The notes beneath the pieces are model-generated. The model saw nothing but the letters and a program-made list of their open reading frames with translations. It made no database searches and was not told the DNA's origin. From NCBI GenBank assembly GCA_903813345.2, contig CAIIXF020000001.1, positions 3,348,001 to 3,412,000 on the forward strand: a stretch of DNA of 64,000 nucleotides, given 5' to 3'. Origin of the DNA: Owenia fusiformis (lineage: Eukaryota). How positions within the stretch are numbered: the first letter of the stretch is position 1; each line of letters begins with the position of its first letter. This document shows positions 1 to 29,700 of this stretch, piece by piece. The position numbers and the translations under genes are program-made.

Positions 1-283
1 TGGAAATCAAAAGATAACAATTATTTGAAGTTACATGGGGGGTGGGTAAAAATCATTTCACTACTCTAAATCTGAAATTATCATACACATGCATATGCAT
101 GTATTTTCAAGATTGATCATTCATATTTATCCATTACTCAATTTCAATACATGTACATGTGTATAGATGCACTTTGTTAATGTAAGTGGAATCATGCCAT
201 TGCCTTCATAATGTCACAATGTACTCAATGAGGTTTTATTATATGTTAAAATATTGAAAAGAAAATCTACATGCTATTTAATA

Positions 284-1145
284 TACAATAGAACCTGTGT
301 AAGTGGAACACCCTCCGTTCTGCCAAAAAGCGTTCCACTTAGGAGGTGTTCCACTTACGGAGGTTTTGGGTTTGCGGGGATTTAACGAACATACAAGATT
401 AAATATAGAGTTGATATGTATCACTGAAAATAAGATTCTCCGATCATTGCAAGGCAGCTATATAGCATTAATTATCCATTTGTTTTACTCAAAAAGGTAT
501 CTGACATTCTAAATCCTCCTCATTCTGCCAAAAATGTTTTCTGACATTCTCAATCCTCCTCATTCTGCCAGTCTCAGACACTAAGATAAGGCAATTAAGT
601 TTTAAAGACTCGTTCCTAATGCTAATAATTCTTTTGTTTTTTAACTGACATTCTTAAGCTTACTTATTAAGTATGAAACAAACAGCAAGAGGTAAGAGGC
701 AAGAGCACCACATGTCCATCTCTTAATCCAATTTGCTGAATGATAATCTTATGAAATTCTAATTTGCTAATTATCAAATTAATTAGTGGTAGCATCACAT
801 GTTGATCTCTACAGGAGGTTAATCCAATTGACTATATGGTAATCCATTAAAATCCTAATTTGCCAATTATCACGTTATTACCTGTTTTTATACCCAGGTA
901 TCACTGTTGGAGGTTAATTTTGTTTACATAAGTATCACTATTGAAATTTATGGAAAATTGACTGTTCCACTTAGCAGGTTAATTTGTCAATATGGGGTGT
1001 TCACTGTTCAAGTTTGGAGGTGTTCCACTTACAGAGGTTCAATTAACATTAAGTCAATGGGTTTTTAAAACGGGACTTTGAAAAAGGGTTCCACTTGCGA
1101 GGTGTTCCACTTACGGAGATGTTCCACTTAGCAGGTTCTACTGTA
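284..1145. mobile_element. Non-autonomous Tc1/mariner/pogo-like MITE
   Basis: TA-flanked inverted ends tacaatagaacctg / caggttctactgta, with multiple subterminal GGTGTTCCACTTA motifs. Shorter relatives lie at about 30671-30839 and 39284-39452. Confidence 0.7.
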
Positions 1146-1155
1146 CTATGATTAC

Positions 1156-4100
1156 CTTCTTTCACAAGGTCAGCAAGCAGACCAGACCACTCCTGGCGAA
1201 ACATGTTAGCTCCTGTGAGACTTCCATCTCCACCAATCACAACAAGGTTTGTAATGTTCTTCTGGATGAGATTATACGCTGCCTTCTTGCGACCTTCACG
1301 TTCGCGAAATTCCTTACAACGAGCACTACCAATGATTGTGCCTCCCTGGAATCATGATAATATTTTGTTTTATATGAGGAAATATGAGGAAGTTTTAGTT
1401 TTCAGGATTAGAAATTTCTAATTTAGAGGGAACATTTCCCTAGCTCTATACCTCAATGCACAAAGCAGTATGCTGTTTATATATTTAAATGAAATGCTCT
1501 ACAATTACTAGCTTATGACAGCTTGGGCTTACCCTTTGAATAATATCCGAGACACTTTTCCAATGAGCTTCAACAATATTGTCTCCTCCATCAACCATGC
1601 CTTGGTAGCCCTACAATATCATTAAGATTAAGTACATCATGATGTATAAGAATTCATACAGGAACAGTCTACCATTTATCAAGTCTCTTTGAATGGGATC
1701 ATGAACACATACATGTATTATTTAATTTATTTACAGAATTAACTTTATACAGAAAGAAATCTAATTATGGTTAAAGAGGTAAAATTGATACAATTAGTAT
1801 AATAAGAACTTCATATAAAAGTTTTAACAGTAGATAGTCTTGCATAAAGCCTTTGTTATACCCCCCCCCGCCCCCCTACATATTTTGAGGTGGCAGGTAA
1901 ATGGGGTGGTACAAAGACTTGATGCAAGGGTAATCTTTACAATTACCAAATTAGCAAAATATCACAATATTCAATTTTTAGGATTTGTAATTAGTGATTT
2001 ACTAGACTTAGATTTACTAGACTACATGTGACTACTATAGAAAACAGAACATAAAGAACAATGTGCCATGCATTCACACTACTGATTAGTATAAATAAAT
2101 AAATTACCTATTTTATATATCTAAAACATGCAAGAGCTAGAGGAGAAGAAGTTTTAATTAAGTAAAATCAAAATTCAAAAAATTATATAACAAAACAGTA
2201 AGACAGATTAACAAAAAAAAAAAAAAATTATGATTAACAGATTAACTTATACAGTTGTACTGGCCAGCACACTGGTTTGAATTAAAGAAATACAAGGTTC
2301 TTAATTTGCCTAAAATGGATAGAAGAGGTACATGTACTGCATTACTAAAGCAGGCAAATGATTAATAATGGCAAAAGATTAATAATGAAGAATCAAAATA
2401 GGGTGTTGATAAATGATAAATGCAGAATCAAATCATACATAACTCATCTTAAGGGTTTATCCCCACAATAAAATCATTATGATTTCTTGGTAATAAAATA
2501 TCCAAACGAGACCATTCATTAACCTACATGTTCCTGACATGTTTCGATATCACTTCAAATACTGCAAATTATTTTGACATCATTTATGATGGGTACATAT
2601 CCAGAATTGCTTATGAGAACTATGATTATCAATATGATAATTAAAGATGCATTGTCCCATTCAAGAAAATAATGCATACAGAACAAACAGAAGATTGAAT
2701 ATGTCTATTGGCTTCCTGGTCATCTCAACCCCAAGTCAACTCAACCCAGTAAAACTCAACCCCAAGTCAACTCAACCCCAAGTCAAGTCAACCCCAGTAA
2801 AACTCAACCCCAAGTCAACTCAACCCTGTAAAACTCAACCCCAGTAAAACTCAACCCCTATATTTCTATATATTGATAAACTTACAAGAAAGTTTATTTC
2901 ATAAAAATAATTTTGATTATTCAGTTTGTGATTTTCATTATTAGACCACTGCCTTTTTAGATTATAGTTAATAATGAGTTTATCTCCAAAATCTCAACAT
3001 GGTACTAATAGGATTAAAATATGGGTCATTTTATTAATCTTGCTAATACATTTGTTTTGTTGTAATCCCTATGAGGTTGACACTCGTGATTATTTGGAAA
3101 ACTGGAACATGACCATTGCTTTCCAGGGGCATAGCCAGCTTTCAGTCAGGAGGGATGCGATCGCCCAAAAAATCAGGTTTTCAGTCAGAGGGTGCCGATC
3201 GTGGCATAAGCCAGCCAAAAAATATGTTTTGACAAAAAATGATGCAACTTCCTTCAAAATTGGGAGAGGGTGTGTGCACACCCCTCCTGGCTACGCCTAT
3301 ATGCTTTCAGGCTATTAATTAGTAAATGTTAATGGTTTTGTTAATGCATGTTCATATAAATGAAAAGTTATATTACATTGTTAATTATTTCTAAATTATC
3401 TGAAATTTGATTTCAAAAGATGTCTTAAATTAAATAATCGTGACAACTTGATGAATTATCCTTGAGCTTAACCGTTTTTTGGAATACTTTTACAACTTTC
3501 TATTCAAATTATCATGCAAAATGCTAGATTTTCAGAAATGAATGACTTAAATTATTCATCATAAAAAATTAAATTAGACATTGCACAAATGAATAGGGTT
3601 GAGTTTTACTGGGGTTGAGTTTTACAGGGTTGAGTTGACTTGGGGTTGAGTTTTACTGGGGTTGACTTGACTTGGGGTCGAGTTGACTTGGGGTTGAGTT
3701 GGACTGGGTTGAGATGACTTGGGGTTGAGATGACCTGTCACCGTCTATTGTGTCTATATACAGGGTAAGTCAAAAAACACTCATGTATTTGTTTTTGAAA
3801 AGCAATCAACTGAGTTCATAAAAACATTTCCACTGAAAAATAAACATCAATTTGAATTTTTCCAAAATAGCAAAAATATGTCCTCAGGTATTTTCAATGG
3901 AAATGGTTGAAATAAACTAGGGGTTCTTTTTGTCCCACCCTGTATATGTAACAATTTTGGTAAATATATTTATGGGACTTTCTATTCTCAACGCTTCTCC
4001 ACTAGTTTTGATAAAGAAATGTGAATGGCTATATCAGATATTTTTTGACAGCCAGATTCAGCCCTAAAAAATTATGTCAACATAATAGACTGATCTGAAC

Positions 4101-7100
4101 TGGCACTGTCAAAAACACGACAGAAACATGTAGTTATAACAATTAAGTTGATTGGATATCATATCACTAAAATAGCATTGATGTGTGCTCCACAAAAATG
4201 CAAGCACCCTATTAGCCCCTAAAGCAATATTTCCATCACCATACCTCTTTGATGAAGTAAGCCTTACAGCCTAAATACACTGCCATTCTTACAGCAGCTC
4301 GCACAGCTCCATTCATGCCTAGAATATACATGAAAGGGCTGGGGATGAGTGAAGCATACAGTATAGTGCAAGGTAAAGACAGGTTGTGCCACAAGACATT
4401 AATGATCATGTGTATGTGTAATCTACCACCACCCACTGGGAATTTAACAGGCTTATATATACAAGTGAAAGGAGGACAGGTCCAGAGCCCATGGTCAAAG
4501 CTCCTTTCAAAATCATGGAGATTTTCACCATTTTGAGCACTTTTCAATTGATTTCAAGCCACTGTCATATGAGAACCCCCCTCGGAGTATTTCCTTATCC
4601 TGATGATGTTTTTTCTAATATATTTACATTCTCCATCTCCCATTTGCTTGTCACCATGTCTATGTGAGGCTGATGAATATTTCTAAGTGATAATCCCATG
4701 ATACAGTGAAGGATGTATGGATTTTTGATGTTCATTCCATAAATATTGCTCACTAACAACATCTAACATTTGCAATACATCTTATGCTGGTATTACAGTA
4801 CAATACAATACAGTACAGTACAGTACAGTACAGTACAGTACAGTACAGTACAGTACAGTACAGTACAGTACCGTACAGCAAAGTACAGTATACCATGTCA
4901 TAGAATGCAAATATCTAAGTCAAATAACAAGGATTAAAGTTTGTAATACAAAGCAGCTAGTTCTCCCTACCTCCTTTACTAGAAAGACCTTGTACTTATT
5001 GAAAATTGCCATTCTGACCACAGATCGTATTGCAGAGTTCATGCCTTGTGGCGAAAAGATGAAGAAAGAAAATTAAATTAAAATGCATATACAGTTTCAC
5101 AGTACCTGTTATAAGGAAAGGTTTAGCAATATTATAGACTATATAGTATGGTGTAAAATCTCAATAAGCAATCCAATAACATTTGTTAATTTAGTTACTT
5201 TGTAATTTTCATGTGTATCTTATTGTAATTTTGGGGCAAAAATATGAAACACTAAGTTGATTTCTTGAATCTTGTTATATCTTCATCCTCAAAGGAAATT
5301 TCGATAAAAATGTACCTGACATTTGTAAGTCAAAGATACTGTAACTTCTTAACTAACAAATGTTATTGCAAATAGCGGTATACACAGTGTAATATATATT
5401 TGCACTTTAGTTCATACTGCACATATCAATAAGAGATGTACATATATGTGTGTATGTAAACACCAAGCAGCTGTACCAGATCCAAAAGAATCTACACGAA
5501 GGGGTTGTATCAGAATATCAAATACATGCACGATGAATAATGACTGGATCTAAATACCAATATTTGAAAGGTTAACAACATATCAATTTATTTAATATAC
5601 AACTTCCAAAGTTTCCATATATGGTACATGTATACTGCTAGAGGAGGAATGTATACATGTATTTGATATTTTGACAAGACTGTTTCCCTCATCCTTGACA
5701 CTTGACTAGCAAATATGAAATAACCATATCCTGAAAAATACCTCTCTTATAAGGAAGGCTTTTGCACCAACATAAATAGCAAATCGTACAACAGCACGAA
5801 CTGCAGGGTTCATACCTGAAAACCAAAAAGTGATTTAAGAACATGACTTTGCAGTGTCAGTGTGTCACTACCTGCCATTTGTTACAGGTACAGACTGTCA
5901 AAACCATTTGTAACAGACACTGAACATCAACTGTCAAACACCATCGACAAAAGTTGGAGATTTGAAAATATTTAAAACATGGCTCTCAAACTTTTACCAA
6001 AAATTTTGCCATAAAAATGGGTCATATTTAGATGATTTTGAAAAAATAAAACAACGCGATTTAGCTTTGGTGTTTGTAACAGTGTAGTTAAAATATGTGT
6101 GTACCTGTGACATGGCACAATCAAATTGTACCTCAAGGCATCAGTTGCTCTCTGGCATCATTTGACAAGTGTAGACACACTCCTCAGAAATCTCAGAAGG
6201 AATCTCCAGGAAGTAAAGTCATTGTAGCATTACAGCAAATTATTTTTTGAGTGTAATGATCTTTGTATCTTTACACAGTGCTTTTTGCATATTAGCTAAT
6301 TCAGATGAATTAAGAAAATAAAGCGATAATAAATCTCTGATGTCAGATGACTACACTTCTGGTAAAAAATTGTGAAACCGCACCCCTCTCTGGGAAAGGT
6401 ATCTGACAGTCCTGGTAGTCAACAAAAATAATATATTTTCTTCTACCCTAGACAGAAAATGAAGACATTAAACAATCTTTTCTATATTCTTTCTACTAAG
6501 CTACTAGGTAGGGTATTTGATAGGGATGTCATGATATCCTGATATTGTCCCGTATCTCAAAACTTTGGTCTCGGGATGGGATGGGACAACCCCAATGTAC
6601 CCAAGATTTTGGTCAATGTTCAGGATATACTAATTATCCTTCACATATTGACCATAAAACTTCCGAATTACACGATGAATTATGATATAGACCAATATTT
6701 TTCTTTCCTATCTCATCTATGCCATCTAGTGGCAATTACTAAAAGTGATTATATTAAACGAAAATTTAGGAAAGAACATGTAGAGTAGTGGATAAAGGTT
6801 TATCGATAATAGAGTTTCCCTTTGAAATATGCATTAATTTAACCAGCGAGAAAAGTAGCAACTTAAAATTAATCTCAGATAACAATTTTTGTGCAACATG
6901 CACAGCCCTCTTGTAACATTCAAAAGATCCAAATGTAAGCTTACATGAGTATAACCAGAAGTAGACAAAAAATGTAAGTTGTTAAAGGTTCAATAAAGAC
7001 CATACATGTAGAAGAAATTTGGGAATCATTTTACCTTTCCCAAGCTATTAGTGCAACGTTTGGCCTAATGTCTTATTTGCCATACCTATTTTCTTAAAAT

Positions 7101-10100
7101 GTATGCACTTATCGACGAATACCACCAATCAGACTTGCAAATAGACTTCTAAATAAGCAATGGAAAGGATGGACGTCCCACATTTTGTTTTTTGAAACAT
7201 TTCTGAATCTCCGCCATTTAAGATTCTTATTGCAGCTGTGATTAGGTAAGACGGCGTGTCAGTATGTTTACAGTATAACCGCAGTTGTCTGATATAACTG
7301 TATGCATGGTACACGATATGACCGCCATTGACGGTCTATTACCGGTGACTCTTGCAGTTAGACTGGTCCACTGACGAAGAAGAATCAAAATAAATTGAAG
7401 ACTAAAACACCTCAAATCTACCCATATTCAAGGTTTTCTTGACACACGCATGGTATAAAGGAAGCAGAATGTTGGATAGAACGTTAGGTGAAAACGGGGC
7501 TGGAATCCAATGACAATATCACTGGGAAATCATTTAAAGGTACATGTACGTGAGCATTTTTTCTGTTGATGTCGGGAGAAGATTCCCGAGGATTTAGGAT
7601 GCCAGTTATTGTGAATATCGGCAGAAATTATGTACGTTCGAGGGTTTTCTTTGTAGCTAATGAAAATAGATGTTAGCCTTGATGAACTATCCAAACTTCG
7701 ATATATTTTGACACCAGGTCCATGATCGTTGGATACATGTACATCTCTGCATTCAACCTTTAACTGTTATGCTATTAACTATTTTATTGGTTATGTCATA
7801 TCCCATCCTGAATGTCCTGCCCGAAATGCCTAATTCCCATCCCCTCCCGAAATATTTTTGTCCCATGACGTCCCTGGTATTGGAATTGATCGATCCAGGG
7901 TACTACACCAAGTTCAACAGTGTCAAGATATAGGGACAGAAAATATTGACATTTTAAAAGTACCGTTTTTTTCGTTTTGTTATTATGGAAAGTCAAACAT
8001 GACTATAGATGATGTTTTATGTAGGCATTTATGTATGATACTTAACCATACTCTACGAAGAATGGATGATTTTTGTAGGCATTTATGTAGGCATTCTTAA
8101 AACACGTTACTTTGCCTTAAAAACGTTACTTTATTGGACTTTAACTTTTCTCCTCGAAGAATGGATGATTTTATATTAGCATTTTCAAAACACAGTACTT
8201 TGCCAATAAAACGTTACTTTATTGGACTTTAACTTTTCCCCACAAAGAATGTATGATTTTTTATGTAGGCATTCTTAAAACACGTTACTTTGCCTTAAAA
8301 ACGTTACTTTATAGTCGAACTTTTCTCCTCGAAGAATGGATGATTTTTAGGTAAGCATTTTCAAAACACAGTACTTTGCCAATAAAACGTTACTTTATCG
8401 GACTTTAACTTCTCCCCACAAAGAATGTATGATTTTTTATGTAGGCATTCTTAAAACACGTTACTTTGCCTTAAAAACGTTACTTTATTGGACTTTAACT
8501 TTTCTCCTCGAAGAATGGATGATTTTTAGGTAGGCATTTTCAAAACACAGTACTTTGCCGATAAAACGTTACTTTCGTGGACTCTAACTTTTCTCCTCTA
8601 AGAATGGATGATTTTTTAGGTAGGCATTTTCAAAACACAGTACTTTGCCGATAAAACGTTACTTTCGTTGACTCGCGTGGACTCTAACTGTTTCCATGCC
8701 AAGTTGTTAAAACACGTTACTTGGCCAGTTTATTCCTTCAAGTGTCGAACATTTTAGCCTTGCATTTTTAAAAAGCGTAACTTTGGCCGATTTCCGTAAC
8801 TTTCTTGTACTCTTAAGTTTTCCTCCATCGAGCGTTGGTAAATTTTAGGTAGGCATTTTCAAAAAGCGTTACTTTGGCCCTTTTCCGTTAGGCCGCGCCT
8901 GGAGAGCCTTAAAATTTAAGGCTCTCTAGCCAAAATGCTAAAGAGCCTTAAATTTTAAGGTTCTTTAGCATTTGGGGTAAAGAGCCTTAAAATTTAAGGC
9001 TCTTTAGCATTTTGATAGCCAATTCTGCTAGAGAGCCTTAAAGGAATTCCAGGCGACAGAAATGACGAAATATTGCTTCTGGGACAAGATCAAACGACTT
9101 TGACATATTCTATACCCAACCTATTTTGTAATTTAACAATCAGCACAAATATACATACCATATTAGCAGATATCGGACAAATTCAAAAAGAAATTTTTTT
9201 GCTCGATAAAATCACTGATTATTAAACCGGAAGTGACTTCTCTGAGGTCCGCGAAGATGAAGAAGAACATATAAAGATTTCAGTCATTTCAACTATTAAA
9301 CTTTGCCGTCGATTTGAATGGTTTTAAATGATCTTCTAATGCTTACTATGACTTCTATTAGTACTGTTTTGACTTCCCCACTTCATAAAAAAACATTATC
9401 ACTTTTTGCTCGACTCATAAATTTACTTCCGGTCTACCGAGAGAAATAAAAGAACCTTTTCAATCCCCAGTCTAAATTTGGCTTTTTAAAGGTTCAAACA
9501 TCTATTTTGAAAAGTTAATGTTTGTTAATTGTTTGATATTCATGCATATATATCCAAAATATATGTCTCTGGTTCACCAGAGAAGGTGTAAGACCAGGCA
9601 ATCACGTATAGCCAGAAAAATGTTATTTTTACCATTTTATCCACTATAAATCGCAACGTCCGTTTCGTAAAGATTTTGATGTACTATAGAGTCATTTATT
9701 GATGGATTGGAGGCTAGGATAAAAATGTTGTTGTTGTGTTGCATAAGCCGCTGTTTCCTCGACATTTCACCTCTTTTGTACTGTAAATTTTCTTTGTGCT
9801 GTCTCATGTGCTTAAATTCTGAGGAAGATGTAAAAATATCTTGATCGTCAAGTGAAAAATTCTAAAATCAGCATTGAAATCTAATGGGCAATAGATTTGG
9901 AAGTGTATTCTGTGATGTCCCTGCATTCACGATAAACTGCGTCAAGATGTGCTGATCTAGAAGAAACAAGATCCTTTCATCCCCAGGTCTTCATCATACT
10001 TTTTGCCATCTTAAAATGGGATTCCCTTAATTCTCGTGACTATAGCAAAGCCGATACAAGTGATTAATTTCATTAAACATTGATGATTGAGCGATGGAGC

Positions 10101-13100
10101 AAGCCCAAGAATTCTAGAAAAAATTGTGTACATAATTTCCGGACATCAGAGAACCGGGCGGACAACAAACTTCCGGCTTGTTATTCAAAATAAAAAGTGC
10201 TCCGTCGGGGAATCGAACCCACGCCGCAGAAGTGGAAAGCGAGTACCCTAACAACTATACCAGAGTGTTTTTCCATGGTGGGGCTAAATTTTTTACAACT
10301 CTATAGTGATATACATGTGTGAAATTTTTAAGTGGCATTCTTGGTTGAAAAACTTTCGAGAGTGTTGTTTTATTGTTTAGATGACGAAAACTTCAATAAA
10401 AAACAATATAAACACGGATTATAAACACAAAGGCTCTCTAGCCAAAACACTATGTTCACAGCTAAATAGCCTTAAATTTTAAGGCTCTTTAGCATTTTGG
10501 CTAAAGAGCCTTAAATTTTAAGGTACTCCAGACATTTCGTTTCCGTTACTTTCTTGGACTTAAACTTTTTTCGATGTGTAACTTGAAAATCTTGTCAGTG
10601 AGTGGTATTACTAATTATTGTAAAATATAAGATGGACCATAGTGTAAAGAGAGGCTAGTAGTGTTTTTCCATCTATTAATTCACTTATTCCACCTTGAAA
10701 ATCTTAAATTCTTGCAGAAACTTTTGTACAATGCCTAACTTTTGTTTTGGTTTGTTTTGTAGTTCGATGATCTTCCATGTTATTTTCGAAATAATAACAT
10801 GGATGAAACTCCCTAAATAGGTACAGCTTTACTGCACGTTATACCTAACTATCTGTAATATACAATAGTTACGTCTTGTACGTATGTTTATATTTTTTTC
10901 ATTTTCTGTTGCAATATGTTGGTTGCTTATTTAACGTTCAATGTACTCAATTAGGCGGTTAAAAGACCAAAGTGGATCCTTTTTCATGAATGTACGTTAA
11001 TTTATAGATTAGTTTAGCCGATAACAGTGTTGAATGACTTCAGAGTTGCAATTTTAGCGATTCATACGATAAAAGATCGATTCATCCCAAACACCCACTT
11101 TACCGGAAGGCGCTCTCTGACGTCCGCGCCATTTAGGTCACTTATAACATGGCATTATTTTTCACTTCCCTTTATTAGTACGTTTGAATGCAACCATCTT
11201 AGACATTGATGCAGCAATTTTGATCATGATCATGAAATGAAATGATCATGAACGAATAACAGATTGACAGATTGATATGTGAAAATTTGGAAGGTGTATT
11301 TTCTGATACTGAGCGACATCTTTATAAAACACAGTTTTCAATCCGACTATAAGTATGAGTAATTCATAAAGATGTCGTTCGCTTCAACTACATCTCATAA
11401 ACGTCGAACTAAATCACTAGTTTTCAAGAATTATATACACATTGTATTATTCAAAACACGAGCTAACAAACAATACAATCGTTTGCATCAGAATATCAAT
11501 GTATTTTTCCATTTAATATTGCACTGTTGTCTTTTGATTGCTTTTTATCGACTGACGGAGACAAAACTGAAGTTCGTCAAAATGCGATTCAAAATCATCT
11601 ATTGAGTACTTTGAATTTCAAAAATAAGCAATCAAATGACCATATTGCAACAATATTTGGAGAAATAGAAACCTCTGTACAAGGCCTAACTTTAGTATTT
11701 CAGATAGTTACAGCAAACGTTTGGCATTCAGTAATTTATTGAGTTTCATCCATGTTAATTTTTCGTGTCGAAAATGTCATGGCAGAGAAGCATCGAAATA
11801 TAAGAGGCCACACATATGATAGCTAACTACAAAACAAACCAAAATATACAAAAGTTAGGCCTCGTACAATTGTTTCTACTTTTACAAAATACTGTTCAAT
11901 ATCGTCCTTTGATTCCTTATTTTTTACATTCAAAATACTCAATCGGGCAAAAAAGTTTAAGTCCAAGAAAGTAACGGAAAAGGGCCAAAGTAACGCTTTT
12001 TGAAAATGCCTACCTAAATTTCACCAACGCTCGATGGAGGAAAACTAAGAGTACAAGAAAGTTACGGAAATCGGCCAAAGTAACGCTTTTTAAAAACACC
12101 AGGCTAAAATGTTCGACACTTGAAGGAATAAAGTTAAAAGTAACGTTTTACTTGCAAAGTACTGTGTTTTTAGAATGCCTACATAAAAAATCACCCATTA
12201 TTCGAGGAGAAAAGTTAAATCCACGAAAGTAACGTTTTATCGGCAAAGTACTGTGTTTTGAAAATGCCTACCTAAAAAGCATCCATTCTTCGAGGAGAAA
12301 AGTTAAAATCCAATAAAGTAACGTTTTTAAGGCAAAGTACTGTGTTTTGAAAGTGCGTGCATAAAAATCATCCATTCTTCGTGGAGATCAGTTAAAGTAC
12401 AATAAAGTAACGTTTTAAGGCAAAGTAACGTGTTTTGAAAATACCTGCATAAAAAATTATTCATTCTTCGTGGAGATCAGTTAAAGTCCAATAAAGTAAC
12501 GATTTTAAGGCAAAGTAACGTGTTTTAAAAAGGCCCTACATAAAAAACCATCCATTCTTCGTGGAGTATGGTTAAAGTCGAATAAAGTAACGTTTTACTG
12601 ACAAAGTACTGTGTTTTGAAAATGCCTAATATAAAATCATCCATTCTTCGTGGAGATCAGTTAAAGTCCAATAAAGTAACGTTTTTAAGGCAAAGTAACG
12701 TGTTTTAAGAAGGCCCTACATAAAAAACCATCCATTCTTGGTGGAGTATGGTTAAAGTCGAATAAAGTAACGTTTTACTGACAAAGTACTGTGTTTTGAA
12801 AATGCCTAATATAAAATCATCCATTCTTCGTGTAGATCAGTTAAAGTCCAATAAAGTAACGTTTTTAAGGCAAAGTAACGTGTTTTGAAAAGACTACACA
12901 AAAATTCATCCATTCTTCGTGGAGAAAAGTTAAAGTCTAATAAAGTAACGTTTTTAAGGCAAAGTACTGTGTTTTGAAAATGCCTAATATAAAATCATCC
13001 ATTCTTCGTGGAGATCAGTTAAAGTCCAATAAAGTAACGTTTTTAAGGCAAAGTAACGTGTTTTGAACAGACTACACAAAAATTCATCCATTCTTCGTGG

Positions 13101-14112
13101 AGAAAAGTTAAAGTCTAATAAAGTAACGTTTTTAAGGCAAAGTACTGTGTTTTGAAAATGCCTGCATAAAAAGCCATCAGTTCTTCGTGGAGTATGGTTA
13201 AAATCGAATAAAGTAACGTTTTACTGTCAAAATACTGTGTTTTGAAATTGCCTACATATAAAAATCATCCATTCTTCGTGGAGATAAGTTAAAGTCCAAT
13301 AAAGTAACGTTTTTAAGGCAAAGCACCGTGTTTTGAAAATGCTTACATAAAATCATCCATTCTTCGTGGAGTATTGTTAAAGTCGAATAAAGTAACGTTT
13401 TACTGACAAAGTACTTTGTTTTGAAAATGGCCTACATAAAAAATCATCCATTCGTAGAGATCAGTTAAAGTCCACTAAAGTAACGTTTTTAAGGCAAAGT
13501 AACGTGTTTTAAGAATGCGTACATAAAAAGCATCCACTCTTATTAGAGAAAACTTAAAGTCTATTAAGGTAACGTTATAAAGGCAAAGTAACGTGTTTTA
13601 GAAATGGCTACATAAAAAATCATCCATTGACAATGAACGAACGTTTTAAAGGCAAAGTAACGTGTTTTAAAATGCCTGCATAAAACATAATCTATTCTTC
13701 GTAAAGATAATGATTATATCACCAGGTTTCAACAGCCAAGGTAGCCAACGTTCCTTAATTACTTTTCATAATAACAAAACGAAAAAAACGGTACTTTTAA
13801 AATGTCAATATTTTTTGTCCCTATAGATCTATCGTGACATGTATAACCAAGTTGGAGTCCAACTTTAGACTGATTCATAAAACACATAACAATGCGATCC
13901 ATAATGGATCTAAATGACATACCCTGTGCATCACCACCACTTGTGAAGACTGCAATTGATTTGCCAGCATAGGAATTTTTTTCAACTTTGTGACCCTCTC
14001 TCCCAGCAGCAGCAATTATTGACATCCCTTTACTCAGATGCCTCCTCCTTTCTTGAGTTGCACAAACCCCGTCTGTGACAGTAGCGTCAGAAAATGACAC
14101 CGAAGCATCCAT
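1156..14112 (-). CDS. PFK: ATP-dependent 6-phosphofructokinase, 5' part (continues beyond the window start)
   Basis: Exons: E1 14112-13923 (MDASV...[13 protein letters not shown]), one of three E2 variants (74 nt), E3 1610-1533 ([26 protein letters not shown]), E4 1345-1156 ([53 protein letters not shown]). All introns are GT-AG with consistent phases. Hallmark PFK motifs TSGGD, GSARC and GGDGSLTGA are present. Confidence 0.97.
2711..3742. mobile_element. Foldback-type element with inverted minisatellite arms
   Basis: Array of (tcaaccccaag/tcaaccccagtaaaac) at 2718-2858 and its reverse complement at 3596-3735. Flanked by direct repeat gtctattg (2703-2710, 3743-3750). A small GGCGTAGCCAG-type MITE is nested at about 3123-3298. 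Confidence 0.8.
3761..3942. mobile_element. Tc1/mariner-like MITE
   Basis: ta|cagggt...accctg|ta ends. A better-preserved relative lies at 48054-48526. Confidence 0.6.
4245..4318 (-). CDS. PFK: PFK alternative exon 2c (74 nt)
   Basis: tctag|GC ATG AAT GGA...AAA GAG|gtatgg; encodes [25 protein letters not shown]. Confidence 0.9.
4796..4890. repeat. (CAGTA)n pentanucleotide microsatellite between PFK exons 2b and 2c
   Basis: Direct reading of tandem cagta/caata units. Confidence 0.95.
4971..5044 (-). CDS. PFK: PFK alternative exon 2b (74 nt)
   Basis: acaag|GC ATG AAC TCT...AAG GAG|gtaggg; encodes [25 protein letters not shown]. Confidence 0.85.
5742..5815 (-). CDS. PFK: PFK alternative exon 2a (74 nt)
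   Basis: ttcag|GT ATG AAC CCT...AGA GAG|gtattt; encodes [25 protein letters not shown]. Confidence 0.9.
8891..10539. mobile_element. Nested non-autonomous element with 9-bp TSD (Mutator/foldback-like)
   Basis: TSD tttccgtta at 8882-8890 and 10540-10548. Ends are built from palindromic gagccttaaaatttaaggctc units. The uninterrupted target site is seen on the host's opposite arm (about 11961-11996). Confidence 0.85.
10198..10266 (-). pseudogene. Degenerate tRNA-like sequence (Gly TCC-like) inside the nested transposon
   Basis: Minus strand reads actctggtatagttgttagggtactcgctttccacttctgcggcgtgggttcgattccccgacggagca. A- and B-box-like motifs are present, but the anticodon stem is broken. Confidence 0.55.
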
Positions 14113-14542: not shown

Positions 14543-17230
14543 ATGAGGTAAAATTCTCCCATTACTTTCCCTTTTACAGATATATTCAAATTGATATCAA
14601 TTTTTATTTTGGTTCACTTTCAACATGAATGTTTCAACCTACCATTGAGATATATTTGAAATAATTGTGCTGCTCACACACTATAGAATCTTGAAATGTA
14701 AAATGGGTGATAATTTTGAAGTTGAAAAAAATGGCTGCCATGTTTTAATTTTGTATAAATAAGTCTAAGGAAAACTACATCTATAGTACTTGCAATTACA
14801 TTGTAAACTCACTACAAAGGTTATATCTCTCTCTAATGTATGTGTATTATTTCAGTACACTGCGTCTGCAGAAGCGTCTGGCATCTGCTGTGCTCAAATG
14901 CGGCAAAAATAAAGTTTGGTTGGACCCCAACGAAACAAATGAAATAGCAAATGCTAACTCACGTAAGTACATTTTGAATTAGTTCTGACTAAAGTGTTTA
15001 TTAACATAATCATAAACCTCATCTGATGATAATCACCAGATCATTGTCGAAATGGCAGCATTATATGCCTGATGGCTGATACGTATCATCTCTTCTCTGC
15101 TTTTGCAAATTATGTAACAAAGTCATTTCACTTAAATCTGATCTGCAGTAGAATTTCTGGATTTTGGAACATAAATGAATTGTCCTCGCATGTATCTGAC
15201 AGAACTCAGTCACTTGAACAGAATAGAATTGACCGAAATGAAAATCAACACACTCTGCTCATATTATTTGTCCCTGTCCTTGTCCCTTTAGAAGTTGTGT
15301 TTATTGCGATTCCAAAAAATCAGGGGTTATTTGCAAAATCCCAAATCTCATTCCAAACAATGCAAAAAGCAAGAAATTTTAAATTAAACTGGAGTTGATG
15401 CATAGTTCACCACCTTCTCGAATGCTGTTCACTCCAGAGAGATATCGGAGATCCATTTATATTTGTTTCGGTAAAATTTAGCGTGATTCCTCCAAGTATT
15501 GGTAGGTATTTTCGTAAGAAATAGATAAAAATATTGTATACAGATGACTGATTGGGGTGTTCTGCGGAACCATCGATTCCAAGTTGAATTTATTATTATT
15601 GTTTCGATTTGCAAGTGATCCGCTATCTGCTATCTGTTCCATTGGCTGTGAGACGAGATGTGTGTTCAAATACACTGTTTAGTTCATAGATTATCTTAGC
15701 AAGTATAAATGTTGCATTGTAAATATAAATATCTAATTTGTACTGTTGTATTTTTCTCAGGTCAGAATATCAGGAAACTGATTAAAGATGGTCTGATCAT
15801 CAGAAAACCTGTAGCAGTTCACTCCAGGGCTCGTGTGCGCAAAAATGCCATTGCACGAAGGAAGGGTCGTCACTCTGGCACTGGAAAGAGAAAGGGTACA
15901 GCCAATGCTCGTATGCCACAAAAAATTATCTGGATGAGGAGAATGCGTGTGCTTAGGAGACTTCTGAAAAAATACAGAGAAGCCAAAAAGATTGACAGAC
16001 ACATGTTAGTATACTTGGTTCTTTAGGAGTACCCATTTTAGTCTTTATAAGGACTTGCAACACATGACTGCATACATGCATCTTTTCATCATTTCAAAAT
16101 TACTCAGTTTTTTCATTGTAGACATCAAGTATCAAATTAGCCTCCCATAAGTAAATTGTTTAGAGCATAGGTTTTCCTTTTTGGGTAATCATGTAATGGT
16201 GTCTTCTCATATCAATACCATTATTTAACACTGACTGAATCTTAGTCCTTCTGAAATCATATTGATCTTGAGGCATCAACGCCTCTAAGTTAAGCTGAAG
16301 AAAATGAGCTTCCTGGCAAATTTAAAACAAAAGAAATAAATTCGAGGTTAAGTATTGATGTCTTTCAAATAATGTAGTATTCTTTGGTGTCTCAAACGGA
16401 CAGGCCAGTCAGCCAAATTAATGAATTAAACTAAAAATATGATTTAGTATTTACTTTATGTATAATTGCATTGTATTCCACAAAAATCAGGAAATTCCTG
16501 TATGTGTTTCAACAAAGATAAAGTATTCTTCTTTCTGATTTCCAGGTACCATCAGTTATACTTGCAATGCAAGGGTAACACATTTAAAAACAAGAGAGTC
16601 CTCATGGAACACATTCACAAAGAAAAGGCTAAGAAACTCCGAAGCAAACAGCTCAGGTTGGTTGATAGAAAACAATTGGTTATTGCAACCTTATTGCGAC
16701 AGCTCACATCACAGTTACTAGAATTACGTGTTTACTCAGACATTTAATTTCGCATAATTTTGCATTTCTGGAAATGCCACATAATTCATTCACCACTCGG
16801 AGCATAATTGTTTGTATAATTTACATTTTTCTGAAAGAATGTAGTCGAATTTATCTTACTGCAATACTTAACATTTTCACTAAACCAAAGCAAGTCAAAT
16901 TCCTATATGAAATGATCATTTCATTTAGGGCCAATGCTCTGGGACATAAACGAGAATGAACCAGTGAGCTGTAAATGTATCATATTTGCTGTCAATGAGT
17001 TCTACCTCGACATTTCAACTCTACCAAAATTCTCTTGATTACCATTTTGATCAGTTACAATAAATATATCACCTGTCACCTAAATTGTTCTCTTTTCTTC
17101 CAGTGACCAAGCTGAAGCCCGCAGGACGAAGACTCGTGAAGCTCGCAAGAGACGTGAGGACCGTATCGCACTCAAAAAGCAGGAGCTTCTCAAAACTTAT
17201 GCCAAGGAAGATGAGGCCGCCAAGAAATAG
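14543..17230 (+). CDS. RPL19: 60S ribosomal protein L19 (eL19), 197 aa
   Basis: Exons 14543-14547, 14856-14962, 15761-16004, 16546-16656, 17104-17230 (594 nt). Translation [51 protein letters not shown]...[12 protein letters not shown]...AAKK*. ATTAAA at 17255 and 17268. Confidence 0.98.
16884..17015 (+). ncRNA. Intronic box H/ACA snoRNA, predicted 18S rRNA pseudouridylation guide
   Basis: Hairpin 1 (ccaaagca/tgctctgg lower stem, tccta/taggg upper stem), H box ACATAA 16944-16949, hairpin 2 (cgag...ctcg), then ACA at 17010-17012 plus 3 nt. About 132 nt in total. The pocket agtcaaatt + gcc is complementary to the conserved 18S sequence GGC-UU-AAUUUGACU. Confidence 0.75.
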
Positions 17231-23700: not shown

Positions 23701-26700
23701 ATATTAAAATTTGAAAGCGTTTTCCTTACTTTCCTGGTGCGTCGTAAGCTTTGACCCAGAGGCTCGATGCCAGTTGAATGATTTGGGCCTGCTAATTTTT
23801 TCATCTGATAATGTTTTGATTTGGCCCCTACATCCCAAATCCTTATGACGCATCCTACTTCCTCTTTTCCTAGTTTAATCAACTTTGTACGTGTCATTAA
23901 TACAATGCACTGTGTGTAATTACATCACAATAGAAGTGAAGTTAGATTAAATTCACAATTTGCAAAATATTTTATCTTTCTTACTAGTACTTTGGAAAAT
24001 TGCCTGATGAATTGGAGTTTAAACAAAATGATAATCAGTTGTTTATTTTTGAAATATTATTTGCAGTCTGTTTTGCACAAAAACAAAATTATTATGTTCC
24101 TCCACCGATATTATCAAAAATAGCTTGCATTTATCAGCATGTTAAACATTGAGAAAGCACCAATCTATCAGGCACATTTTATAGTCTGGTGGTCGATGGT
24201 ATTACCCATTTTATTTCACAATCACAATTACACATCCATTTTATGTTAATTGTAATTTTATGTGTAATGGCTTGTAATTGTGAATAAACTACTGTCCAGG
24301 GCTAAAGCTGAAATGAGTTAGAATTGGTTGCTGGTTTGCATCAATATTTTTAGGTGAAAGGGTACTTTTACATTTTGAAATTTTGTATTTGTTTTACTGC
24401 ATAAATGTCTGGCTCATATGCCAAAATGATCTTTTCAGCATGTTTCTCCAAAACAAATGTTTTATCATCTTTGATATTCTTCAGTATCAATGGATGTTTA
24501 TATGAGACACATTCTACCAGCATTATTAATATTTATTTCATTAATAATTAGTTGGTCTTAATAAGTCATTAAAATTATGAAAAAATGTTATTTTATTTTA
24601 GGTCAACCTGGCCTAGGGGGACAGCAGGTTGGTCCCCCAAGAGGAATGCCCCCAGTTGGGATGCCACCGGGCCCACCTGGGGGACTCCCCCCAGTAGGTA
24701 TGCCACCGGGAGCTATGCCTCCAGTAGGTATGCCCCCTGTTGGAATGCCCCCTGCCCAACCGCCTCAAGTGCCCCAACAACAAGGAATAGAAGGAGGAAG
24801 ATCGGAGGGCAGTCCCATCTCAGGCTTCCAATGTCCAGCAAGACCTAACCATGGTGTTGATGGTAGACCCATCATGCTGCGTGCCAACCATTTCCAAGTG
24901 CGTATGCCACAGGGCTTCATACATCACTACGATATTCAAATCACACCAGATAAATGTCCAAGAAGAGTTAACCGGTAAGTACAATATTAATGCATTTGAA
25001 AGATCTAAGTAATTATTATATCACTGTCATATTCCCCACTCTCTTATTGGTCTATACCATACACTTGACTAAAAATAAGAAGGCTTATTCATCGCCCAAG
25101 CACTGAAATTAAAAGAATGAAAGATGCACAAGTATTCACCTCCATAGTATGAAATATTTTTGGATTATCATCCCTTTTGCTGGTATGCTCTGGCTCTGGC
25201 TTTTAAATTCTTCATATATCTTGAAAAATGTTATTCTCTGGCACTTTACGAAAATAAGATGTTCCCCTTCTGTGTATAACATGAGTGTATTTGTTGAAAA
25301 CAGGAAACATATTTTTCCCAACAGGTGCTTATATTTGCCATCTGCTGTTTTCTAATAAAAGAGCTGATTATATGATCTTGACAGTTGACAAGCACCTTCA
25401 TCATTAATATTGGGTTGCTTAATGATTTCTATTTATTTATTTTCTTCCTCGAATGTTATTCATCATTCTTACTAGCCTATATCTTGTTTTGTAATGCATG
25501 TGAAATTATTGATGGTGCAGTAGAATAAACTATGAGTTAACATTTTGACAGTCAACTTCCACCCCTTCCTTGCCAGGTTCACAAAACTGCAAATTTTATT
25601 CTATTATGTTATCTAATGTCCCCTTGTGCCTGCTTTTTAATTAAATAATTTAGTCATTATTTATTTTTATTTTAGTGAAATCATAGAAACAATGGTGCAA
25701 GCCTACAGAAACCAAATATTCAATGGCCAGAAACCAGTATTCGATGGAAGGAAAAATCTGTACAGTCGAGATCCTCTACCAATAGGGCGAGATAAGGCAA
25801 GTGAAATATGTAACCTAGAAACTTTAAGCCATAAAGTCTATATGTCAGTACCCTGCGTGCAGAGTCTAGTTAAACTACACTCTGCCTAGGAGAGACTATA
25901 TTGCAGTTTAGTAGCCCCGCCCCCACGACGGGTACCGGTGACAGTTTGGGTAATAAATCACTTTTGACCTACGCGCTGACCTTTCTTCCACCAATCAGCG
26001 AGCTTGAAAAAACATACGCCAAATGCGTTCTTATTAAATATGCGCATGTCATTGGTCAATTCCGGGCTCAACAATGACGTCAGAAGGAATGACCATATAT
26101 AGAACGTCGGTCAAATTTGGCCGACGAACACTGATTGGCGCGGTGAGTTCACAGGTTTATTTTAGTTTGAAAGAGTGAAGACGAAGCTCTCTTTTAAGAA
26201 GTGAAGTCAAACGAATGCAAAGGGTAATATGTCAGAATTAGAAAATGTTCATACATTCACAAATTGTGTCAACTTTTACTTTGTTTCATAAGTAGTGTAC
26301 TACTGTAAGACATGTGCATATTGAATGCCTATGGAGCTACAAAAACTAGGGAAGTGTCCACTACAGAATTGTTTTCAGTTGAAACATGTGTTCAGTAAAA
26401 TGGAGTGTAGCATGTTTTACTGCACAATACTTCCTATATGTCTGGCTTCAACGTAAATAATATGAATTGAAACCAAACAAACACTTTTATTTTAGATTGA
26501 AGTTGAGGTAACTTTGCCTGGAGAGGGTAAAGATCGTGTATTTAAAGTTGCAATCCGCTGGGTCGCCCAAGTCAACCTATATGCTTTGGAAGAGGCACTT
26601 GAAGGACGAAGCCATGCAATGCCATTTGAAGCAATCCAGGCACTGGATGTCGTCATGAGGCATTTGCCCAGTATGACGTAAGTCTTAATTATAACGAAAT

Positions 26701-29700
26701 AATTATAAGAATATATAATTAAGTGTATATACAGAATATGATTCGGTATGAAACGCTGAATTGGAGATTCTTAAACTAAATAAAATATTCGCTTTCAGGG
26801 TGAATGTTCAGCTTCAGTATTCAGGTTTTTAGGCAAATTGTTTTGTATTAATGTCAAATAATACACAGAAATTCTCATTTAATCTCCAGTGTGACTATTG
26901 GGATTGATTACATTGCTGAGATCAATTTTCTGCTGCCAGTCATGAAGGAAATAATGTTCTAGGCATGATTATGACGCACATGCACCAACATCCTGTAATA
27001 ATTATCCCATCGAATGAAGTTGGGAGGATATAGAGAACGCCTCTGTCCGTCTGTCTGGGCAATAGTTGGAATTCCATTGACCCAATGGCCAATATTGTTT
27101 ATATTTTATAACATATGACATATGCCCTATATGAGTAAAGTTGATTTTGGAAATGGCCACCAGTTTTAAAATAGCCACCATTTTAGTGTCAATTTTACAG
27201 TATTTTAGTTACAATATGTAATTCTGCATTACTTAAAGTAAAAACATGGCAGCCATGTTGAGTGATTTTTTGTTGAAATTTTACGCATGAATACTTGAAG
27301 CATATTACACTAATGACAGTGTAGTGGAGCGATTTTGGTGATATTTTTTATGTGAATTCTTATTAAAACTTTAAAGGCATGTATTACCTAATGACACTTT
27401 GGAAAATATTGGGAGCCATTTCCAGGAAATTATGGCCATTTTTGTTTGTGTTATTCTACATTTTTGCTATAATTGGAAAAGAAATAGAGCAATTTTGTTG
27501 ACACTGTTAAATTATATATCTGCTTTATATGGGCTTATTAGCCTATTGCAGATTATTGACATAGACATATCTTTTAGCAATACATCTATGGTTGCCATTT
27601 TGTGACATGATTTCTAGCAGTGTTGTCTGACACTCAATAGATGTTTGATAGGATCTTTCTCTTTGGCGTTGCTGTTATCTAGTTAGATATCCATTTTCAG
27701 GTCGTTATAGAGAAACCAAGCCTGGTGATTTTCATTACTTGAGTTTTCAATTTTGTGACATTCCTTTTCAGGTCCCTGGAGAGCAGATCAGATTTTCCAT
27801 TGATCTGTGAATAAATGTGCATCATATTAACTGCTTTGATTACTTACTAGGTATACCCCAGTAGGGCGTAGTTTTTTCTCACCCCCAGAGGGTAATTATG
27901 ACCACCCATTAGGCGGTGGGAGAGAAGTTTGGTTTGGGTTCCACCAGAGTGTACGTCCATCTTTGTGGAAGATGATGTTGAACATTGATGGTAAGACTGA
28001 ACTGTGTATATTTCCATGTATTGTTCTATGGTATGTGGCGGACCTGGCTAGCTGGCTTTTTCAATACAGGTGTAGGATGTGGCTACTTTGCATTTTTGAT
28101 AGCATGCATGGATGATCTGTTGTGCTGGTGTTTCTTTCATTATTACCCAAAGCATTCACATCAAGAATTTCTTGTGAAATACAATTCTTTCTGGCTTAAA
28201 CAACAACAATATCAACAATATGTTCACAATTTTTATATATAGTATATTCACATATTTATTTCACAAGATTCACACAGATTGATCTCTCATATTAATCTTG
28301 TGACATCATATATTGGGATGTTCAAAGTCAAATTGTATTTCACTAAGAAGGGAAATCTTGGTTCATACATGTTTGCTTGGTGTGTTTGTCTGCCTGCTTA
28401 TATATATTGGGATTCCATCCCCCAAGTGCACCTAATAAAAGAACTTTAAGGTACACCTTAGGGATGTTCCCTGGAGGTTTAAAAATAGTATTTTTGGTAC
28501 TTTTGTCATTCATAGTTTTCTGAGGTTCTAATTGGCAACAAAAGATATAAAACTTAAAAAATTATATTCTGTTAGTGTGCTTTTTTCCAAGAAATATTTG
28601 ACAAAATTGGGCGTGGCACTACCTCATTGAATCCCATGTAAACAATCAGATTTCACCCGAAACACAATTTGAAGTATTTAACTTTTCTTAAACTCACAGG
28701 AACACTTAGTTATGATATGTACATTACATTTGGAAGAAAGAAAATTTACCAATTAATGTTCATAATTTTCAACTTTGTCCAGGGTACATCCTTAATGGAT
28801 TTAAAAAACAGTGAATTCAAAACATTACAGGCTGGCATCTTGATAGAAATTGAGTTGTATGAATCCATGTTTTTTGGAGCTTGGTGATAGCTTAAGCTTG
28901 GGGATGGCTTTCTTAGTTATAATATAAGCAGGCAGATGCGTCATGTCACCGTTTTTGGTGTACTTTGTTTTAACTTCAATATTATGGTTACCTACAGCTT
29001 TAAAGAAACAATCAATTGAGTAGCCTAATTTGAAGTTTAGCAAAGTGCATATTCAATGACTGCCCCAGGTTCCCATGGTTTTTGTTGCTTGCTTTGAGTT
29101 TTCACCTTTACGTAGTCATGTGTTTAATTGCACAGATATACCCCAGTCGGCCGGTCTTTTTTCTCACAACCGGAAGGCTACAATCACCCCTTAGGTGGAG
29201 GCAGGGAGGTTTGGTTTGGATTCCACCAAAGTATCAGACCAACTCTATGGAAAATGATGCTTAACATAGACGGTAAACAAACGCAATGATATATTATTGT
29301 AATGGCCTTGTTAGTATAAATGCTTTCTTGGATTGGTGCTAGAATCTTAGACATTGTATTAAGTTGTTTTTATGTGTTACTTGGTCCGATGCATGTATAT
29401 AGTAAGATAAACTATTAAGAGGAAAATATTTAAATAATATGTGTTTTTTCGCTGCATATTTACTCTAGTATTCACATATTTCTTTGTTAGTTATGTTGAT
29501 TAATAAAAATACCTAGAGATATGCCTGCCAGTAAAAGAGCAAGATCTCTAGTAATAAAAATTAAAGTGATCAAATTTACTTTGTTTATGCTTATTTGAGG
29601 AAAGCCAGAAGGATGAGGCTGGTAGCATCTAATTTCACAATCTATTTTATTTAGTTTCTGCCACTGCCTTCTATCAGGCACAACCTGTGATAGAGTTCAT

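Follow-up and report, generated by a model that had tools for sequence, protein, structure and literature searches.

Three tandem copies of exon 2 in a phosphofructokinase gene of Owenia fusiformis form a probable mutually exclusive exon cluster

A 64,000-nucleotide (nt) stretch of the Owenia fusiformis genome (assembly GCA_903813345.2, contig CAIIXF020000001.1, positions 3,348,001 to 3,412,000 of the forward strand), hereafter the window, carries on its minus strand a gene for ATP-dependent 6-phosphofructokinase (PFK) in which exon 2 is present in three tandem copies, named here 2a, 2b and 2c. We consider it highly likely that these copies constitute a mutually exclusive exon cluster generated by tandem duplication, with one 74-nt copy entering each mRNA and at least two isoforms resulting. 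PFK exerts the main control over glycolysis; its regulatory diversity in animals is known mostly from vertebrate gene duplicates.

The minus-strand codons from the ATG at 14112 to 13924 (63 codons) are 100% identical to the start of P0001, a deposited protein of 818 amino acids (aa) named "unnamed protein product [Owenia fusiformis]" and classed as ATP-dependent 6-phosphofructokinase (Pfam PF00365), of which residues 39-803 align with human muscle PFK (PFKM, 4omt) with E = 0. Because of this identity in exon 1, together with the PF00365 match and the full-length likeness of P0001 to 4omt, the gene is assigned by its translation to the O. fusiformis PFK, of the eukaryotic two-half type. P0001 was the sole Owenia PFK protein among the database matches listed. 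Exons 1, 2a, 3 and 4 of the window translate to P0001 residues; an RNA contig of run X9 that covers 1156-1344 in exon 4 has a loose end that continues into the next residues of P0001, and the gene extends past the window start beyond exon 4. The nucleotide loop of PFK, TSGGD.QGMN, is divided between exons, TSGGDAQ closing exon 1 and GMN opening every copy of exon 2, and the GGDGS motif is found as IGGDGS in exon 4. The columns of both motifs are invariant in an alignment of 36 PFK sequences. The coordinates of the features are collected in Table 1.

Table 1 Features of the window, with RNA junctions of exon 2 and tandem pairs of Argonaute open reading frames (ORFs)
Feature	Position	Strand	Description
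PFK exon 1, coding part	13923..14112	-	ORF; 63 codons, with TSGGDAQ at the end; G at 13923 begins a split Gly codon; donor gtatga
Intron 1	5816..13922	-	8107 nt; contains two arrays of an 89/179-nt satellite
Exon 2a	5742..5815	-	74 nt; version carried by deposited P0001
Exon 2b	4971..5044	-	74 nt; copy that diverges most (N16 K17 Y18); hardly visible in RNA
Exon 2c	4245..4318	-	74 nt; strongest RNA support; missing from the sole deposited protein found
Intron between 2c and exon 3	1611..4244	-	2634 nt; contains a ~1-kb element with inverted arms
Exon 3	1533..1610	-	78 nt; RNA joints; P0001 match
Exon 4	1156..1345	-	190 nt; ends LADLVKE plus 1 base; RNA joint 1344->1532 (cut +1)
Junction 2c to exon 3	1609->4244		X11 2, X12 2, X13 5 reads; X9 contig depth 30.2
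Junction 2a to exon 3	1609->5741		X11 1, X12 1, X13 0 reads; X9 contig depth 24.4
Junction 2b to exon 3			none among the joints listed in X11, X12, X13 and X9
Satellite arrays (89/179 nt) in PFK intron 1	8082-8665 and 12137-13628		6.6 and 16.7 units
Argonaute ORF pair	27840-28112 vs 29128-29286	+	88% over 51 aa
Argonaute ORF pair	~29642-29794 vs 29812-29964	+	90% over 51 aa
Argonaute ORF pair	31775-31921 vs 31878-32057	+	62% over 32 aa
Argonaute ORF pair	34496-34657 vs 35171-35299	+	76% over 42 aa

The three exon-2 copies are intact and have splice-site borders of their own. Each is preceded by AG (ttttcag, cacaag and ttctag for 2a, 2b and 2c, respectively) and followed by GT (gtattt, gtaggg and gtatgg), and all lie in the same phase, opening on a split Gly codon. 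Translation after this codon reproduced letter for letter the three peptides quoted in an earlier sequence-only reading of the window, whose placing of the three exons and of the flanking junctions at 13923 and 1610 also proved correct, given the donor of exon 1 and the RNA joints into exon 3. Repeat finding recovered the copies as a single three-copy family with spacings of 726 and 771 nt, and identity among them amounts to 42-46 of 74 nt and 11-15 of 24 aa. Such neighbouring, homologous exons that agree in length and phase and are each flanked by splice sites are the pattern of tandem duplication. A six-frame scan of the whole 64 kb for MN.A.R gave matches at the three exon-2 places and no others. 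When the exons were each aligned locally to the masked introns, no fourth copy or relic scored above shuffled queries, the best score being reached by 6, 16 and 31 of 60 shuffles for the three exons.

Exon use was assessed by mapping RNA on window positions 1-6000, from three raw RNA-seq runs under the same species label (X11, X12 and X13, each read to 6-12%) and from the contig run X9. Of the exon 2-to-3 junction reads listed for the raw runs, 9 of 11 join 2c and 2 of 11 join 2a to exon 3. The contig run contains two separate spliced pieces of 129 nt, one with 2a and one with 2c, with 0 differences from the window. Since the other end of the 2c piece consists of 28 letters that exactly match the end of exon 1 (13924-13951), an mRNA with the order exon 1-2c-exon 3 does exist; the 2a piece matches the 2c piece in length and layout, and the loose ends displayed do not include its exon-1 side. 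RNA depth on the PFK exons, the exon-2 copies included, falls in one orientation class throughout. No joint between two exon-2 copies occurs among the joints listed, at low depth and with 11 further joints outside that list. The spliced forms seen in RNA each carry one member of the cluster, and exclusive use is established for 2a and 2c. The two forms stand near parity by X9 contig depth and at 2 to 9 by the junction reads of X11-X13, which hints at a 2a/2c ratio that differs between samples, contig depth and junction reads being non-comparable measures and the counts small.

In the case of exon 2b, the boundary between two 200-nt bins falls inside the exon, and X12 shows a depth of 0.16 in one bin and 0.19 in the other. 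This corresponds to about 70 nt, roughly one spliced read's worth, in the orientation of the PFK mRNA and confined to the exon, and hints that 2b may be used. The claim of the sequence-only reading that all three exons are used in a mutually exclusive manner, which it had proposed to check with junction reads, is therefore borne out for 2a and 2c, with joints from 2c to exon 3, 2c to exon 1 and 2a to exon 3; for 2b the runs show depth in place of a listed joint. One part of the contrary outcome that it had named, expression of a single exon, was not observed, 2a and 2c both being present in spliced RNA. As a separate observation, the 2c form leads the junction reads in the three raw runs, yet no deposited protein with exon 1 carries 2c.

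Comparison of the copies indicated that they have long been maintained as protein-coding sequence. Synonymous differences between them are saturated (proportion pS 0.71-0.86) and replacement differences few (pN 0.24-0.33), and third codon positions differ at 13-16 of 24 sites vs 5-9 at positions 1 and 2. Because synonymous sites are saturated while replacements are few, the exon-2 duplications are evidently old, and all three copies appear to have been kept as coding sequence under purifying selection. The copies were further compared with the exon-2 segments of 119 other animal PFKs (77 distinct), taken from the 120 best PFK matches. Six positions, G1, M2, N3, R7, R11 and E25, are kept in all three copies and are invariant in 77 of 77 distinct segments; R7 and R11 are the two arginines of the R..VR motif, and their retention among varying neighbours had been pointed out in the sequence-only reading. 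The positions that vary are 4, 6, 8, 9, 12, 14-18 and 20-24 of the exon. Ala13 is common to 2a, 2b and 2c and is found in only 4 of the 77 other segments, a sign either that the duplication took place in the Owenia lineage or that the copies have exchanged sequence. During this comparison, P0002 (Cyprideis torosa, 893 aa) was considered as a further case of alternative exons and rejected: its N-terminal block including exon 2 is repeated exactly (exon-2 matches at residues 70 and 254), which inflated its match score and is probably a gene-model or assembly artefact.

To place the alternative segment in the protein, an AlphaFold model of P0001 was built from the 36-sequence alignment (mean predicted local distance difference test score, pLDDT, 86.6). 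A strand at residues 52-57 leads into the GGDAQG loop, and exon 2 supplies helix 65-78 and strand 82-86, in agreement with the earlier description of these exons as encoding the helix and strand that follow the TSGGD loop. The exon-2 blocks have pLDDT of 86-95, and the turn at 79-81 is the place of NKY in 2b. If the alignment, in which residue 51 of the query equals residue 2 of 3pfk, is taken to be free of gaps, R70 and R74 of P0001 correspond to bacterial Arg21 and Arg25, which bioRxiv 10.1101/384198 counts among the ADP and phosphoenolpyruvate (PEP) effector-site residues of bacterial PFK; the association of the R..VR arginines with effector binding that had been stated in the sequence-only reading agrees with this. 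Lynch et al. 2024 (PMC11345425) equate the bacterial PEP/ADP site with "site 3" of human PFKL, which is located between the two halves, catalytic and regulatory, and at which bound ATP appears to inhibit.

By homology, R70 and R74 of the Owenia enzyme may line an effector pocket that the neighbouring variable residues modulate, the two arginines themselves being identical in all isoforms and variation being found only in their neighbours. The module that is swapped would consist of the GMN end of the ATP loop, the helix with the two arginines, and the strand leading into the EGYQG segment, so that differences between the protein isoforms, at least 2a and 2c and probably a rare third with 2b, would be confined to helix 1 and strand 2 of the catalytic half. 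Different allosteric tuning of the isoforms is plausible. They may differ in regulation, through inhibition by ATP or through activation by nucleotides at the effector site of ancestral origin, or else in domain packing.

Several points weigh against reading the three copies as a working mutually exclusive cluster with functional consequences. Some concern the breadth of the evidence: the junction reads total only 11, the cluster was examined in this one genome, contact of R70 and R74 with a ligand in an animal PFK is proposed by homology, and a functional difference between the isoforms is hypothetical. In addition, among the same-species isoform sets of nine species within the 120 best PFK matches, a difference in exon 2 was never found. 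The sets of Daktulosphaira, Copidosoma and Procambarus swap a block at residues ~220-255 (...SEAD.VFIPE.PP...), in that of Latimeria, blocks at residues ~252-280 are substituted and insertions and deletions occur too, the entries of four of the nine species differ just by insertions, deletions or altered ends, and the two Babylonia entries differ throughout, like two genes. The remaining points concern 2b, which has no listed joint and its ~70 nt of depth in one of the four runs, has lost Gly17, a residue that all 77 other segments keep, and reaches 45.6 bits on the family columns, compared with 72.4 for 2a, 73.1 for 2c and at least 82 for family members. When its 50-aa stop-to-stop ORF was compared with proteins of 89-2000 aa, none shared three 5-residue words with it, which is weak evidence that relatives of 2b are lacking.

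These properties of 2b, along with its three consecutive residues N16, K17 and Y18 that are unseen in the 119 other animal PFKs, are what would be expected if the cluster were a two-way switch with a relic, the functional alternatives being 2a and 2c, and 2b being a cryptic or decaying exon that is seldom or never spliced in and has no role. We regard this as possible, though somewhat short of an even chance. Against it, the length of 2b is still exactly 74 nt, its frame is open, its borders are AG/GT with a good pyrimidine tract, and it retains G1, M2, N3, R7, R11, K19 and E25. Its differences from 2a (pS 0.71, pN 0.29, ratio of replacement to synonymous rates, dN/dS, ~0.17) are unlike free decay since an old duplication, and its RNA depth in X12 is limited to the exon and has the orientation of the mRNA. 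The low score and the loss of Gly17 fit both readings, and 2b is either specialised or less constrained.

Another explanation accepts the exclusive splicing and places the benefit elsewhere. The isoforms may be biochemically equivalent, with the copies persisting through divided expression, in which different splicing regulators act in different cells, and not through properties of the enzyme. The substitutions between 2a and 2c are mainly conservative and within the range seen between species, each of these copies having a single residue unseen in the 119 other animal PFKs (P4 in 2a, A9 in 2c), and the catalytic and effector-site residues are all kept. However, the saturated synonymous sites and the retention of distinct proteins suggest that each version has been held in its own form, and the mutually exclusive exon pairs of PKM and PFKP are reported to differ at allosteric-ligand residues (PMC9741552). 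We consider equivalence of the isoforms unlikely.

At the other extreme stands an elaboration of the favoured cluster reading that we put forward as speculation and hold to be rather improbable. Here, swapping of the helix at the ancestral ADP/PEP pocket (site 3) would provide Owenia with isozymes where vertebrates use gene duplicates, the choice of exon would re-set ATP inhibition or nucleotide activation by tissue, stage or oxygen, and 2b would be a specialised enzyme of low abundance, not a relic.

The reading frame accounts for exclusivity at the level of the protein. As the sequence-only reading had maintained, the frame stays open with exactly one exon-2 copy; inclusion of 0, 2 or 3 copies shifts the frame and leads into stops, and any second copy begins GCA-TGA, an immediate in-frame stop. 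The introns between the copies measure 697 and 652 nt, which exceeds the length for steric exclusion, and all sites are GT-AG. The frame rule with its immediate stops is the only exclusivity mechanism visible in the sequence. Because of the frameshift and the TGA at the opening of the second copy, mRNAs with none, two or three of the copies should undergo nonsense-mediated decay. In the proposed mechanism, splicing factors would choose the exon, mis-spliced forms would be removed by this decay, the frame would enforce exclusivity of the protein, and exon choice would vary between samples.

A choice of exon by competing RNA pairings between a docking site and selectors, as in Dscam or 14-3-3 zeta, is in our view very unlikely here. 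The window does contain a 30-nt pair of 77% complementarity (I20), with one member upstream of 2a (6014-6043) and the other upstream of 2c (4505-4534), which would loop out 2a and 2b. This pair is within chance, given 89 inverted pairs in 5 kb of AT-rich DNA (GC content of the window 0.30-0.39). In a search of this single genome for exact Watson-Crick words, 0 9- or 10-mers were complementary to both inter-variant introns, and the 8-mer counts of 1, 1 and 3 equal the shuffled means of 1.30, 0.86 and 2.88; no single intronic sequence complementary to a site beside each variant was found. Finally, an assembly or haplotype artefact, with one exon written three times, is ruled out for practical purposes by the divergence of the copies (42-46 of 74 nt identical, in unrelated introns) and by the presence of two of them in RNA as separate spliced forms.

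Exon swapping in PFK has precedents. In Ivanov and Pervouchine 2018 (PMC6071210), Drosophila melanogaster Pfk is listed with an annotated cluster of three mutually exclusive exons, that is, the same enzyme, the same device and three alternatives in one gene as in Owenia. The entry leaves the exon unnamed; the arthropod isoform sets compared here swap residues ~220-255, whereas Owenia swaps exon 2. Since the arthropod swaps lie at that place and the dipteran PFK entries present in both the best-match list and the exon-2 set have one exon-2 form each, the Owenia cluster is most likely an independent duplication of another exon than that of Drosophila Pfk.

Human PFKP also has mutually exclusive exons, distinguishing PFKP-203 from PFKP-205, according to bioRxiv 10.1101/292813 and PMC9741552. 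This is likewise a swap of tandem-duplicated exons in an animal PFK, and the PFKP pair touches an allosteric-ligand residue. It comprises two exons, however, and its place is the C-terminal, regulatory half, close to the sugar-bisphosphate site (residue 539, V to I), whereas the Owenia cluster lies in the catalytic N-terminal half at residues 64-88. PKM1 and PKM2, mentioned in the same two papers, result from mutually exclusive use of exons 9 and 10 in pyruvate kinase M. The sequence-only reading had drawn the analogy with this glycolytic control enzyme, in which the choice between homologous exons sets allosteric behaviour, and isozymes tuned by tissue or anoxia in the PKM1/PKM2 manner can be offered as a hypothesis for Owenia. 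PKM differs in being another enzyme of another fold with an established kinetic difference, the Owenia isoforms being known from sequence and RNA. Vertebrate PFKM, PFKL and PFKP are paralogous isozymes with tissue-specific use, as stated in the review PMC12203962; these arose by whole-gene duplication, whereas the Owenia variation is a 25-residue module inside one gene. Our literature searches found nothing on PFK exon-2 alternatives or on splicing of Owenia PFK. Flies and humans already provide examples of exon swapping in PFK. In the cases that could be checked other exons are affected, and what appears to be new here is the exon-2 site.

The PFK introns contain several repeats in addition to the satellite arrays of intron 1. 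The intron between 2b and 2c holds a (TACAG)19 microsatellite at 4794-4890. In the intron between 2c and exon 3, a ~1-kb element at 2718-3735 has 140-nt arms (2718-2857 and 3596-3735) that are 97% complementary and are built of 16-nt repeats. RNA reads of either strand map there, and the element is therefore probably a transposon-like dispersed repeat; its arms could pair in the pre-mRNA and so shorten this intron. In the intervals 201-400 and 1001-1200, RNA depth is high for either strand, odd joints, back-joints and loose ends are numerous, and 79-85% of the reads mapped there continue into unlike sequence. The repeat at these places centres on a 16/17-nt motif, GTTCCACTTACGGAGGT-like, and looks like a short, abundant dispersed repeat in PFK introns.

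Elsewhere in the window, an Argonaute gene with ArgoN, ArgoL1, ArgoMid and Piwi exons lies at 24565-40662 on the plus strand and includes several tandem pairs of similar exon-sized ORFs (Table 1). The sequence-only reading had mentioned Argonaute exon clusters in the same window, and the similarity of these ORFs supports a gene with tandemly duplicated exon pairs at ~24.6-40.7 kb. Between the PFK and Argonaute genes, a plus-strand ORF at 16466-16744 that resembles ribosomal protein L19e in its C-terminal domain (PF25476, E = 3.6e-07) marks a neighbouring gene.

For the annotation of the Owenia gene, these results call for a correction, as P0001 carries 2a while 2c has more junction reads in three RNA runs. 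In other respects the cluster is one more instance of tandemly duplicated exons that are spliced exclusively, which is a common device. As a natural three-way swap limited to 25 residues around the ATP loop and the helix of the ancestral effector site, it would offer a compact system for probing the contribution of this helix to allostery in two-half PFKs.

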